This document shows, piece by piece, positions 1-9,870 of a stretch of 64,000 nucleotides of DNA. The translations under genes and the position numbers were made by a program. Each line of letters begins with the position of its first letter. Within the stretch, counting starts at the first letter, position 1. The notes beneath the pieces are model-generated. The model was not told the origin of the DNA, searched no databases, and worked only from the letters and a program-made list of their open reading frames with translations. The DNA is from Escherichia phage vB_EcoM_F1: the sequence record NC_054912.1. The stretch is one strand, 5' to 3'.

Positions 1-191
1 ATTAGCCGTGCATTAGGAGCAGTGCACAAAACTTTGCATCCTTTGAATACGCCTTTTTGCAATTTGTATTGCTTGGGATAAAATTCGCTCAAAATGTTAT
101 TATTTGCTAAAATTTCAAAATGATTCACCAATTTATTTTTAATAGTTTTTGGTGAAAAATAAAGATATTCGAAAAGCTGTGTGTCTGTCAT
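1..191 (-). CDS. hypothetical protein, N-terminal part only (gene runs off window start)
   Basis: ATG at 191-189 overlapping the stop of the upstream gene (ATGA); frame stays open to position 1; begins MTDTQLFEYLYFSPKTIKNK. Confidence 0.4.
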   Translation of the reverse strand, partial: MTDTQLFEYLYFSPKTIKNKLVNHFEILANNNILSEFYPKQYKLQKGVFKGCKVLCTAPNARL

Positions 192-730
192 CATTGCATT
201 CCGATTACGAAAAACTGTGGACGAGTAATACCACCAATACAACATTTAATATTACAGCAGCAGTGTACAGTGTCAATATGGACACTATAAATCTTATCCA
301 TATCAGGAGATTTGACAGGCTCATCAATTATATACAAAATTCGCGAAAGCGATAAACCTCTGAACTTGCTTCCTTTATTACCGATAAAACTGCGCACAGA
401 ATCAGTAAATAAACGAAAACGTATATCATCATTAGAATAACGCGAAAATTCCTTTTTGATGCTATTTGCAGAAATTTTAGCGTAAGCTGAAGTATTAGAA
501 AGAACAATAACTGTTCCACCGTCATACAACCAATTAGCGGCAAAATTAGTTACTGCAGTTGATTTACCGGATTGACGTCCACCATCTAGTCGAAGTGTGC
601 AATACTGCTTAAGTAAGTCTTCAAATGGTGGGATATAATCGTTTTTACAAATTTCTTCTACTCTAGCATCAGAATGGTGTGTAAAAGCATTCATCAGGGA
701 TAGATAAGGACCAGTTAAAAATGTTCTCAT
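191..730 (-). CDS. hypothetical protein with Walker A-like (GGRQSGKST) and Walker B-like (LYIIDEP) motifs; possible small P-loop NTPase
   Basis: 179 aa ORF with ATG start; P-loop motifs read from translation; odd Cys-rich C-terminus. Confidence 0.45.
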   Translation of the reverse strand: MRTFLTGPYLSLMNAFTHHSDARVEEICKNDYIPPFEDLLKQYCTLRLDGGRQSGKSTAVTNFAANWLYDGGTVIVLSNTSAYAKISANSIKKEFSRYSNDDIRFRLFTDSVRSFIGNKGSKFRGLSLSRILYIIDEPVKSPDMDKIYSVHIDTVHCCCNIKCCIGGITRPQFFVIGMQ

Positions 731-882
731 TTCTTCTCTCTAAGTTTGGGCCATTCCGTGGCGCATGAATTGTCCATTTCTGTATTTACCCATTACCGCA
801 CTTGGGCTCGACCTTATTACAGGTTGGCGGGAATCCCTCACAAAATCATGAGGTCCAGGTTGTTCCCATATTTCTTATTTGC

Positions 883-1356
883 TTATTTGAATGATTTAAC
901 GTACTGAATAGAACCTTTACTATTCACGAAAGCGATTTTACCATTTTTATTATACATGGTAGCAGTACGCTGATATCCATAAGTTTGCTTACCAGATTGA
1001 TAACCAACTAATGCGAAATTATCTTCACCCATTTTATTCTGTTTAGCGCGAATGCGTTCATGACCATGTGCCATAAGAACCTTAGCATCACCCGTTGCAA
1101 TGGATCTACGAGTTTTTTCATCTTCAACTGTATTAACAAAGTCGTCAAATGAATCAAATTTAGCATGAGATTTATTATACAGTTTTCCATCTACTGCATA
1201 ATTATATCCTTGTACATCCATCTCAACTTCTGTACCATCATCCAATACAGCAGTGATTTTCTGTCCTTTTTTAAATTTCAAAAGATCAGTAAAAGATTCA
1301 GCAATAATTTGAGAATTAATAGCTGCTTCAGTAATAAATTCTTGATATGTTTTCAT
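883..1356 (-). CDS. internal-protein-like head protein with capsid-targeting-sequence-like N-terminus
   Basis: N-terminus MKTYQEFITEAA matches T4 internal protein CTS pattern; position next to lysozyme e as for T4 ipIII; 157 aa (T4 IPIII is longer). Confidence 0.6.
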   Translation of the reverse strand: MKTYQEFITEAAINSQIIAESFTDLLKFKKGQKITAVLDDGTEVEMDVQGYNYAVDGKLYNKSHAKFDSFDDFVNTVEDEKTRRSIATGDAKVLMAHGHERIRAKQNKMGEDNFALVGYQSGKQTYGYQRTATMYNKNGKIAFVNSKGSIQYVKSFK

Positions 1357-1393
1357 GTGTTTCCTTTAAATATTTTAATTAGTAACTGTGAAT

Positions 1394-1423
1394 ATACTAT
1401 CACAGTTTTAGGAGAAAGTAAAC
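1394..1423 (-). promoter_or_regulatory. early-type promoter (-35 GTTTAC, 18 nt spacer, -10 TAGTAT) overlapping a stem-loop, upstream of the IP-like gene
   Basis: minus-strand GTTTAC at 1423-1418 and TAGTAT at 1399-1394; inverted repeat aactgtga/tcacagtt 1384-1407. Confidence 0.45.
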
Positions 1424-1427
1424 AACT

Positions 1428-1958
<531 letters not shown>

Positions 1959-2883: not shown

Positions 2884-3242
2884 TTAATTTTCCTACAATC
2901 ACTCACAAACTCTTCCATTGATTCTTTTTCAATATAAGACATATAGCTATTATATTCCTTTAATTGTATTTTGTAATCCTTTTTTCTTTGCCAATTTATT
3001 TTAAAATTATCATAATGAAAATATAACATGGTACCAAAGAATGAAAATAATGAAATTGCTATAGTATAATGAAGTTCACTCCAAACTTCTATTATATTTA
3101 CTGTGCCGTCAATGTTTAAAATAAGACAGTCAATTAACAATCCAAAAAGACTACCCGCAAGAGCTGCAGCCAACGCCACAGCAAAAATTAAAAATGACTC
3201 AGGAAACGAATATTTGACTTTATTTAGTTTTGGCTTTTGCAT
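2880..3242 (-). CDS. small membrane protein (two predicted TM helices), unknown function
   Basis: 120 aa ORF, ATG start; hydrophobic stretches; C-terminus DCRKIK from conserved junction. Confidence 0.5.
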   Translation of the reverse strand: MQKPKLNKVKYSFPESFLIFAVALAAALAGSLFGLLIDCLILNIDGTVNIIEVWSELHYTIAISLFSFFGTMLYFHYDNFKINWQRKKDYKIQLKEYNSYMSYIEKESMEEFVSDCRKIK

Positions 3243-3616
3243 CGTGATTCCTTAACAAATTTCATAATTTCATCAAATTCATACGCAGCAAGTTTAAGCT
3301 GATGTTCCTTTTTAATCTTTTTACACTGTGCTTTCCAATCACGTACGCGTTTACGATAATGCCTTCCTTGATACCAGTATCCTACCCAATTTACAGGTAC
3401 TAATAAAAGTGGAACTATTAATGGAAGAATTAGCGTTGCTCCAAATATTACACCAGATTCAATATCAGTCATAACATCTATAACTATTCCGGCAATCAGC
3501 AGAATCACAAATGATACAGCTACCACAGGACCTATTAACACATCAGTAGAAATTATCTGACGCTTTAATTCATACTTCAACGGTTTACTTGGAAGGTATA
3601 GTGATGGTTTTGACAT
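3224..3616 (-). CDS. small membrane protein (two predicted TM helices), unknown function
   Basis: track ORF starts at TTG 3637; first ATG at 3616 preceded by AAGGAA RBS; hydrophobic stretches. Confidence 0.5.
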   Translation of the reverse strand: MSKPSLYLPSKPLKYELKRQIISTDVLIGPVVAVSFVILLIAGIVIDVMTDIESGVIFGATLILPLIVPLLLVPVNWVGYWYQGRHYRKRVRDWKAQCKKIKKEHQLKLAAYEFDEIMKFVKESRCKSQN

Positions 3617-4193
3617 ATTCTCTACATTCCTTAACAAATTTTTCTAGTAATAAATCGCTTTCAAAATTGGGATTTTCTACGAATTTATCAAAAAGATCAT
3701 CAACAATAGTTAAGATATTCTTTTTGCTAAGAATACGTTTATTTTCATGCTTCGTTTCAGAGTCAACTATAAGAGTAAAGAAATATTTCTTTCCCTGAAA
3801 TTTTACCGTAGTATCAATATAAAATAAATTTGACTTTTGTAAATTACGTTTAAACCATGCGTCACTTAAACTATAAACACCGAGATAATCAAAATCGTCA
3901 TTTAAATAACAAACTGTCCATTCAGGAGAAATGAAATCAGTAAATTCAACATCAAAATCACATGTTAATGAATGAATTGATTCAATACTGTTAATAAGTA
4001 TTCCAGGACGTATTAAAGACTTTTTACCTCTGGAAAATCTTCCAGAAAGACTTTCATTAGTTTCATATGAAGAACCCCAATAATAATTACGCCCTTCTGC
4101 CATACGTTTAAGAGCATTTAATAATTGGTCTGGAACATCAACTTGTCTTTGGAACTCTTCAAACATTGAATTGAAATCATTTTGCATTCTCAT
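3585..4193 (-). CDS. hypothetical protein
   Basis: 202 aa ORF, ATG start with GGAG RBS after a GC hairpin. Confidence 0.55.
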   Translation of the reverse strand: MRMQNDFNSMFEEFQRQVDVPDQLLNALKRMAEGRNYYWGSSYETNESLSGRFSRGKKSLIRPGILINSIESIHSLTCDFDVEFTDFISPEWTVCYLNDDFDYLGVYSLSDAWFKRNLQKSNLFYIDTTVKFQGKKYFFTLIVDSETKHENKRILSKKNILTIVDDLFDKFVENPNFESDLLLEKFVKECREYVKTITIPSK

Positions 4194-4214
4194 TTCTATT
4201 TACTCCAAGTAATA

Positions 4215-4228
4215 GGGGCCGAAGCCCC
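4215..4228 (-). other. GC-rich stem-loop (ggggc-cgaa-gcccc)
   Basis: inverted repeat read directly; near-identical 24-mer recurs at 45675-45698. Confidence 0.5.
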
Positions 4229-4234
4229 TTATCA

Positions 4235-4828
4235 TTATTTCAGAGAATTAATGTATTCCTGAACATCGGCAGAGGTAGTTTCAACCCCAGAAATATTACC
4301 ATTAAAGGTTTCAACTCGAGCAAGGGTATCTTCAATATCAACCTTAGTCAGTGCTGCAATTTCAACTACATCATCGGCAGTACTAATTCCAAGGGCATTT
4401 GCCGCACGAGTTTCACGGATATATTCCAATTTAACTGCAAGCTCTTGACGAGCATCATCTAACTCAACTACTTTCTTGGCGATTTCAATTCGCATTTCAG
4501 CATAACCGTCAGCCTTAGTAGTCAACTGCTCAGCTGTTCGACGATATAGTAAACCGAGTTTAGCATGCATTGTTACATCTTGACCTTCGGAAAGAAGTTT
4601 ACGAATTTCACGCTCTTTTGATTCAGCCTGTCGATTCTTTTCGACAATAAGTTCACGAATACGTTTTTCTTCGTTAATAGATTTAACAGAAGCAGTTTTT
4701 AGATCTTTAATTTTATCAAGTAGTTTTGCTGCTGCAGCAGTATACTGTTCTTCAACAGATAGATTTTTAGCCATAGCAGAACCAAGTTTAGTGCGAATAA
4801 ACTCAACAATTTTCTTCAGTGTGTTCAT
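4235..4828 (-). CDS. coiled-coil protein, PspA/IM30-like candidate
   Basis: 197 aa, all-helical composition, N-terminal amphipathic segment [15 protein letters not shown] resembling the PspA N-terminus; own early promoter. Confidence 0.55.
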
Positions 4829-9579: not shown

Positions 9580-9870
9580 TTACAAAAGATTTTTTGCAAT
9601 AATTTTAAGCTGAGCTACTGAAATATGCTTGGCTTTAAACAAAGCAGTTTCTTCAGCAGGGGAGATAACGATTGTAGCACCATCTTTCTTAGCGGACCAT
9701 CCATCACCCAGGTAAACAGTACCTTTGACTTCTTCGCCATCAACCAGACTAATCATTGGTTTACCTTCTCGTCCTTTATTTGCTTTAATAACTTCAGAAG
9801 TAAGAGTAGCTTCGGTAATAGTAGAAACCGGGGTAGTTGTAGTAGAAGTAAATTCTTTAAATGTTTTCAT
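9580..9870 (-). CDS. internal protein I-like head protein with CTS-like N-terminus
   Basis: 96 aa; N-terminus MKTFKEFTSTT..ITE; size and position (between tRNAs and 57B) as for T4 ipI; sequence diverged. Confidence 0.6.
   Translation of the reverse strand: MKTFKEFTSTTTTPVSTITEATLTSEVIKANKGREGKPMISLVDGEEVKGTVYLGDGWSAKKDGATIVISPAEETALFKAKHISVAQLKIIAKNLL

Follow-up and report, generated by a model that had tools for sequence, protein, structure and literature searches.

An Ip4/ipIV internal protein gene between lysozyme gene e and vs.8 in a T-even phage: a conserved cassette and a candidate injected inhibitor of host defence

Organization of the e-ip4-vs.8 locus

The window, that is, the whole stretch of 64,000 nucleotides analysed here, is 100% identical to Escherichia phage vB_EcoM_FN (MZ170041.1, genus Tequatrovirus), with window position 1 at about position 64001 of that record. 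Close to its beginning, a small gene with the leader of a T-even internal protein lies between the lysozyme gene e and a homologue of vs.8. The features of the locus, together with the second leader-bearing gene of the window, are the following:

191-730, minus strand: vs.8 homologue, downstream neighbour of ip4 (179 aa; 97% identical to residues 41-219 of T4 Vs.8; PHROG 1488)
731-882, minus strand: ip4-vs.8 spacer (152 nt), which stays constant at the right-hand edge of the variable ip region, with a very strongly conserved core at about 790-827 (about 38 nt)
883-1356, minus strand: ip4 (ipIV) CDS, from the ORF list (157 aa; ATG start, TAA stop at 883-885)
886-1296, minus strand: predicted mature Ip4 (residues 21-157; computed values 15.5 kDa and pI 9.3)
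1297-1356, minus strand: capsid-targeting sequence and propeptide (residues 1-20), with predicted prohead-protease sites after E10 (ITE) and E20 (IAE)
1357-1383, minus strand: leader with the Shine-Dalgarno region, AAAGGAAACAC ahead of the ATG, common to ip genes
1384-1423, minus strand: early promoter and hairpin, a PeSL-type cassette, assigned from sequence and conservation
1428-1922, minus strand: gene e, soluble lysozyme, upstream neighbour of ip4 (97% identical to T4 lysozyme; Pfam Phage_lysozyme)
1956-1949 and 1943-1936, minus strand: two TATAAATA late-promoter motifs upstream of e, found by pattern search
9580-9870, minus strand: Ip1 homologue (96 aa; residues 23-96 about 96% identical to T4 IPI)

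The protein encoded by ORF 883-1356 begins with MKTYQEFITEAAINSQIIAE in translation. It is spanned along its whole length by the Pfam family DUF7412 (PF24183; E 5.7e-96, 319 bits against a curated cut-off of 27), residues 1-157 aligning to profile positions 1-158, and it is also matched by PHROG 3155 (phrog_3155, "internal virion protein") with an E-value of 6e-102. Its place agrees with this family too, since it sits between e and vs.8 in the variable ip region. All 157 of its 157 residues are identical to those of Ip4 from phage T2, and the best match of its AlphaFold model in the viral structure library (BFVD) was "Ip4 [Enterobacteria phage K3]" (UniProt Q38388, 99% identity). The same label is given to the homologue in the records of Shfl2, SA20RB, Salmonella phage S16 and Klebsiella phage phiA85, the Shfl2 record adding a similarity to RB51, RB70, RB32, RB14, and T2L, and the gene name ipIV appears in the RefSeq records of PP01 and Kha5h. 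When the mature part (residues 21-157) was used as a tblastn query, 469 phage records were recovered, 290 of them at 99% identity or more.

Judged by its sequence, ORF 883-1356 is thus Ip4/ipIV of the T2-like phages, a known and annotated family and not a new one, and it is reportedly Repoila and co-workers who originally described it, in 1994. The initial annotation, made before any database search, had taken the gene for a variant cassette of the variable internal protein locus carrying an effector domain; this is supported, with the addition that the cassette already has its names (Ip4/ipIV, DUF7412, PHROG 3155). The gene itself adds little, being a named family present in T2 and in hundreds of relatives.

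Relationship to T4 IPII, IPIII and Ip1

An alternative explanation for the gene, raised in the initial annotation itself, would be that it is a mere length variant or allele of T4 IPIII or IPII, as these have a leader in common with it and ipIII is preceded by the same kind of promoter and hairpin. Weak profile-profile matches (hhalign) point in the same direction, with 63% probability for IPIII over 59 columns and 88% for IPII, the latter driven by the leader; neither was accepted as homology. Similarity in the mature domain was found with neither protein. A tblastn search of IPIII against the window matched residues 1-13 alone, and for IPII the similarity, which starts at the common leader, was weak (33% identity over 79 residues, E 1.7e-4). 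Global alignment of Ip4 with T4 IPII and IPIII gives 27-29% identity, concentrated in the leader, Ip4 has Pfam and PHROG families of its own, and in Shfl2 the genes ipIII and ip4 stand side by side. We therefore regard allelism with IPIII or IPII as most improbable, the proteins being unrelated beyond the leader. As to size, the roughly 190 aa given for T4 IPIII in the initial annotation was right (T4 ipIII encodes 193 aa, and ipII 100 aa), and the gene is non-canonical in length when set against T4 IPIII; the description fails beyond that, since IPIII is a different gene.

The gene had also been counted as the third with such a leader, a number that has to be lowered. A search of the window with the leader pattern found two ORFs, ip4 and the Ip1 homologue at 9580-9870, whose N-terminus reads MKTFKEFTSTTTTPVSTITE followed by ATLTSEV. 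The window carries Ip1 and Ip4, without Ip2 or Ip3.

Promoter, hairpin and transcription

The e-ip4 intergenic region has 71 nt, and the early promoter and hairpin proposed there from the start, next to the stop codon of e, could be located precisely. Reading along the minus strand, the e stop codon TAA (1430-1428) is followed by GTTTAC at 1423-1418 and TAGTAT at 1399-1394, and the 8-bp hairpin arms AACTGTGA (1407-1400) and TCACAGTT (1391-1384) enclose the -10 element. After GTTTAC come 14 nt and then gtgaTAgtaT, ending at 1394, which fits the T4 early-promoter form GTTTAC N14 gtggTAttaT as quoted in the SA20RB annotation. Read as TTTACT N17 TAGTAT, the element differs by one mismatch, in the -10 hexamer, from the T-even PeSL consensus TTTACW N17 TAYWAT, and it combines this early promoter with a stem-loop at the border of a variable gene, as PeSL cassettes do.

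Conservation is the main support for both promoter and hairpin, because the fold of the whole 71 nt upstream of ip4 is not significantly stable (z -1.5) and a generic sigma-70 scan did not report the ip4 promoter (GTTTAC/TAGTAT scores 8/12). The element is identical before ipIII in Shfl2 and nearly identical in T4, where one pair of the stem is altered on both sides with respect to the window (C-G to T-A), a compensatory change. An early promoter and a terminator are annotated in the SA20RB record at the element upstream of ip4; our terminator scan called no terminator at the 1384-1423 hairpin, and Rfam and tRNA scans of the ip4 region returned nothing.

The leader that follows the hairpin is also repeated among ip genes: in Shfl2, ipIII and ip4 both carry ATTTAAAGGAAACACATGAAAAC without any change, and T4 ipII and ipIII have a nearly identical stretch. 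Upstream of e, the SA20RB record annotates a late promoter at the place matching the two late-promoter motifs found in the window, and these late promoters are a probable source of transcripts that would reach ip4 by read-through.

The best sigma-70-like match of the region lies elsewhere, at 1503-1531 on the minus strand (TTAACT, 17 nt, TATAAT, with an upstream TG; 10/12), inside the 3' end of the e CDS and about 150 nt upstream of ip4. Such sigma-70-like matches are no more numerous in the region than expected by chance.

Capsid-targeting leader and predicted processing

The near-perfect capsid-targeting sequence noticed in the initial annotation stood up to comparison. The first 10 residues of Ip4, MKTYQEFITE, are identical at nine of ten positions to the leader MKTYQEFIAE of T4 IPII and IPIII, and the two possible (L/I)xE sites pointed out at the same time could be placed, as ITE (residues 8-10) and IAE (residues 18-20). 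Ip4 thus has the arrangement of the T-even internal proteins, with the leader MKTYQEF(I/L)xE and a (L/I)xE protease site after it. In T4 head assembly, gp21, the prohead protease, cleaves on the C-terminal side of the Glu in (L/I)xE motifs. Both E10 and E20 are nearly invariant across the Ip4 family. The leader of the T4 internal proteins directs them to the prohead core and is removed by the prohead protease, and the proteins are injected with the DNA (PMC3012670, PMC9391042).

Three distant relatives of Ip4 carry a different leader (MNFxxFLNE...), yet the LNE site is kept at its end, which supports a conserved link between this domain and targeting to the head. The possibility that the leader is vestigial, and Ip4 simply an early protein of the cytoplasm that stays out of the virion, has to be considered in this context. 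A strong early promoter directly 5' of ip4 would suit such a protein, and so would the outcome of a search for virion proteomics on Ip4, which found none. In the searchable literature on Ip4, ipIV, and DUF7412, no experiment on packaging, cleavage or injection was found, a point against an injected Ip4, and no paper on function. We think that a vestigial leader is very unlikely, given that purifying selection maintains the leader and the two cleavage motifs in different genera, that a variant of the leader persists in the distant relatives, and that in T4 the 10 residues of the leader are enough to bring foreign proteins inside the head (Mullaney and Black 1996, cited in PMC3012670 and PMC9391042).

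Gene order and cassette exchange

The order of genes is e-ip4-vs.8 in the window and e-ipIII-ipII-denV-vs.8 in T4; ipII, ipIII and denV (endonuclease V) are absent from the ip4 locus (731-1427, set against 2914-4503 of the T4 stretch used for comparison) and from the whole 64-kb window. The order seen in the window is likewise that of T2, RB3 and others, of S16 (Gelderlandvirus) and of phiA85 (Jiaodavirus), and it is therefore T4, and not the phage of the window, that has the variant arrangement. The comparison with other T-even phages that the initial annotation had called for thus shows an e-ip4 junction common among these relatives. Retention of ip4 beside e extends to phages of Escherichia, Klebsiella, Salmonella, and Serratia. 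The vs.8 homologue that closes the locus carries a P-loop (GGRQSGKS) and gives weak AAA/terminase-N matches.

A further arrangement, e-ipIII-ip4-vs.8, is found in Shfl2, relative to which the window lacks exactly ipIII. The junction between presence and absence of ipIII falls within ATTTAAAGGAAACACATGAAAAC, the stretch common to both leaders in that phage. Conserved promoter, stem-loop and leader sequences have been proposed to mediate the shuffling of cassettes in T4-type phages (PMC2839356, PMC4122927), and the position of the ipIII junction fits this idea, recombination at that point being what we infer from the comparison of genomes. The difference may have arisen by deletion or by insertion of ipIII. 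The comparison shows a mode of ip cassette exchange, with the junction placed inside the repeat formed by the common leader and targeting sequence.

Two annotation slips were seen in relatives with the same gene order. In phiA85, the "putative IpIII internal head protein" after ip4 (3080-3613 of the stretch compared) is a P-loop Vs.8-like protein with no internal-protein leader, located where the window has vs.8, and in S16 the Ip4 CDS (2402-2902 of the stretch compared) is annotated from eight codons upstream of its MKTYEDF start, overlapping e.

A conserved spacer downstream of ip4

The ip4-vs.8 spacer forms the vs.8 leader; its T4 counterpart separates denV from the ATG of vs.8. The GC content of the spacer is 45%, compared with 32-36% in its flanks. 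Conservation of the spacer extends to 1031 phage records, whereas fewer than half as many contain ip4. The core, ACCTGTAATAAGGTCGAGCCnAAGnGCGGTAA, is invariant at 31 of 32 nucleotides in the 15 distinct sequences compared, which were drawn from T4-like genera, rV5-like phages and one Pseudomonas phage; synonymous sites of the adjoining coding sequence are saturated over the same comparisons. At 91-95% identity, copies of the core also stand next to the tRNA cluster in Vequintavirus (rV5-like) phages and within that of Pseudomonas phage PsgM04F; by count only, the core is present in Campylobacter phage records as well. The exact 21-mer searched for this element did not occur in any of 185,579 bacterial genomes.

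Covariation is seen at one base pair next to the core (A-U in eight sequences, U-G in four, C-G in two and U-A in one), and this pair is never broken; it falls within a possible helix, CCN-ACC / GGU-AA-N'GG. The fold of the spacer is no more stable than that of shuffled sequence, and Rfam and tRNA scans gave no match for the element. Taken together, the core may be an undescribed RNA motif or a DNA site. A protein-coding explanation for the element was rejected, as the conserved nucleotides fall in different frames in different phages.

The T4 record extends the vs.8 CDS (2254-2913 of the T4 stretch used for comparison) across this non-coding element, adding 40 N-terminal codons to Vs.8. These codons are open solely through an insertion of about 11 nt that puts them in frame, and the start of T4 vs.8 is probably annotated too far upstream.

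Selective constraint, family breadth and predicted structure

Comparison of ip4 with its counterparts in SA20RB, Shfl2, and T2 revealed 6, 8 and 13 synonymous differences, respectively, and no non-synonymous one. Accordingly, dN/dS is 0 within Tequatrovirus, and it is 0.12-0.15 against the copies of Jiaodavirus (Klebsiella) and Gelderlandvirus (Salmonella), where dS exceeds 1.4. Because of these values and of the Pfam match, ip4 can be regarded as a real, constrained and functional gene.

The family has a narrow range. When 1.84 billion representatives were searched exhaustively with a profile, 7 hits came back, all of them members or fragments of members, and a search of IMG/VR for more distant Ip4 loci returned close relatives alone. 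Searches with Ip4 against PADLOC and NCBIfam produced nothing. The initial annotation had recommended a profile and a structure search; the former led to DUF7412 and PHROG 3155, and the latter returned no significant fold match. The AlphaFold2 model (mean pLDDT 73, pTM 0.65) has an N-terminal helix over residues 4-25, corresponding to the leader, a beta hairpin at 33-55, three helices at 70-102 and four strands at 113-156, that is, two beta regions around a helical insert. Foldseek comparison of this model with the PDB gave nothing below an E-value of 0.4, and a sequence search of the PDB gave no significant match; its best candidate, the dsRNA-binding domain of RNA helicase A (E 0.53), was rejected as a chance similarity.

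Two members from Klebsiella phages are unusual. In vB_Kpn_AM_K5 the C-terminus is swapped for unrelated sequence, giving a protein of 184 aa, and in vB_Kpn_AM_K6 (a 261-kb record) the first third of the mature part alone is present. Both are probably frameshifts or assembly artefacts.

A possible role in countering host defence

Internal proteins with this type of leader have recently been connected to host defence systems. The T4 proteins Ip1, Ip2, and Ip3 each act on one GmrSD type IV restriction enzyme: Ip1 inhibits the GmrSD of CT596, Ip2 the GmrSD/BrxU of ECOR21, and Ip3 that of ECOR17, which is of the two-gene kind. None of the three cross-protects, and the leader is the sole part that they have in common (PMC12373910). 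IPIII acts in the cytoplasm even without its targeting sequence (PMC9391042). Such cassettes also hit defences other than GmrSD, as shown by the leader-bearing Bas37_0260, which blocks McrBC (HIDEN-SEQ preprint, 10.1101/2025.11.20.689424). The ip4 gene is one more interchangeable T-even ip cassette, and its product is probably packaged, trimmed by the protease and injected, and would, by analogy with these proteins, disable a host defence.

If T4 biology applies, ip4 would be transcribed early from its own promoter and, at late times, on transcripts that start at the late promoters of e and read through into it. The leader would take Ip4 into the scaffolding core of the prohead, and gp21 would trim it after E10 and probably after E20, leaving a basic protein of 137 residues and about 15.5 kDa that would stay with the packaged DNA and be injected with it. 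On the model of Ip1, Ip2, Ip3, and Bas37_0260, injected Ip4 would then bind and disable a host defence acting on the incoming modified DNA. It would work as a stoichiometric inhibitor, and its target would be none of the GmrSD variants tested so far.

This last qualification comes from published work, in which ip4-10 were assayed against active GmrSD variants without any reproducible inhibition (PMC12373910, Supplementary Fig. 9). In the same study, T2 was restricted by the GmrSD systems of CT596, ECOR21, and ECOR17 (PMC12373910); T2 carries an Ip4 identical to the protein of the window and is restricted nonetheless by these three characterised systems. The near-invariance of Ip4 also speaks against the proposed role, because identities of at least 99% in 290 records are odd for a gene engaged in an arms race.

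The main rival to an injected inhibitor is a DNA-associated, non-specific role, in which Ip4 would be mainly structural, neutralising charge, helping condensation or ejection, or shielding the entering DNA end, with no specific host enzyme as its target. The composition of the predicted mature protein would be suitable for this, with a pI of 9.3 and 22 Lys+Arg among 137 residues, and the internal proteins of T4 number about 1000 copies and contact DNA phosphates through their lysines (review PMC3012670). The very high conservation of Ip4 would suit an unchanging target like DNA, and the lack of a GmrSD target for Ip4 goes in the same direction. Other observations weigh on the opposite side. 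The ip locus is a hotspot of gene swapping, and no general structural role can need ip4, because many T-even phages, T4 included, do without it. Moreover, all four leader-bearing internal proteins of known function (4/4) are specific enzyme inhibitors, and the fold matches of Ip4 were not significant. On balance, a mainly structural Ip4 appears unlikely to us.

Coming back to Ip4 as an injected inhibitor, its near-invariance and its presence in phages of four host genera suggest that the target is conserved. A tentative, narrower proposal, which we put forward as a possibility with rather low confidence, is that Ip4 disables a more conserved function, other than GmrSD, that meets glucosyl-hmC DNA, either another modification-dependent nuclease or a conserved host factor. 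A conserved non-GmrSD target would explain the failure against GmrSD, the near-invariance across hundreds of Tequatrovirus genomes and the retention beside e. If found, the target of Ip4 would add to the picture of how T-even phages and the defences of enterobacteria compete in their arms race, and it could aid the prediction of host range for therapeutic T4-like phages.

Comparison with known systems

The closest counterparts are the Ip4 proteins of T2, K3, RB3, Shfl2, wV7, and S16 (DUF7412, PHROG 3155), which represent the same gene as the ORF of the window. The T2-type locus is like that of the window in the leader, in its place 3' of e, in the downstream spacer and in vs.8, and the protein shows no difference. 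The e-ip4 leader of the window lacks a 17-nt stretch found in SA20RB and in the T4 e-ipIII leader, and equals the e-ipIII leader of Shfl2.

T4 IPII (Ip2) and IPIII (Ip3) resemble Ip4 in their location between e and vs.8, in the promoter and hairpin cassette, in the leader and in the targeting sequence; their mature domains are unrelated to that of Ip4. T4 IPI* (Ip1) is, like Ip4, a small protein with an N-terminal targeting leader encoded at a hypervariable locus. Its propeptide of about 20 residues ends in a second xxE site, as predicted for Ip4, and IPI* is injected with the DNA. It differs in its mature part, which has no sequence similarity to Ip4, in its location near gene 57B, and in having a known target, the GmrSD of E. 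coli CT596. Bas37_0260 is described as a leader-bearing internal protein, like Ip4, that inhibits McrBC, and it sits at the ipI locus.

Finally, the element upstream of ip4 can be compared to the PeSL (promoter-early stem-loop) cassettes of T4-type phages (Arbiol 2010; Comeau 2014), which also consist of a TTTACW N17 TAYWAT early promoter and a stem-loop. As in these, it is located at the edge of a variable gene and is repeated between neighbouring ip genes, with the difference that in the window the stem encloses the -10 element instead of standing before the promoter.
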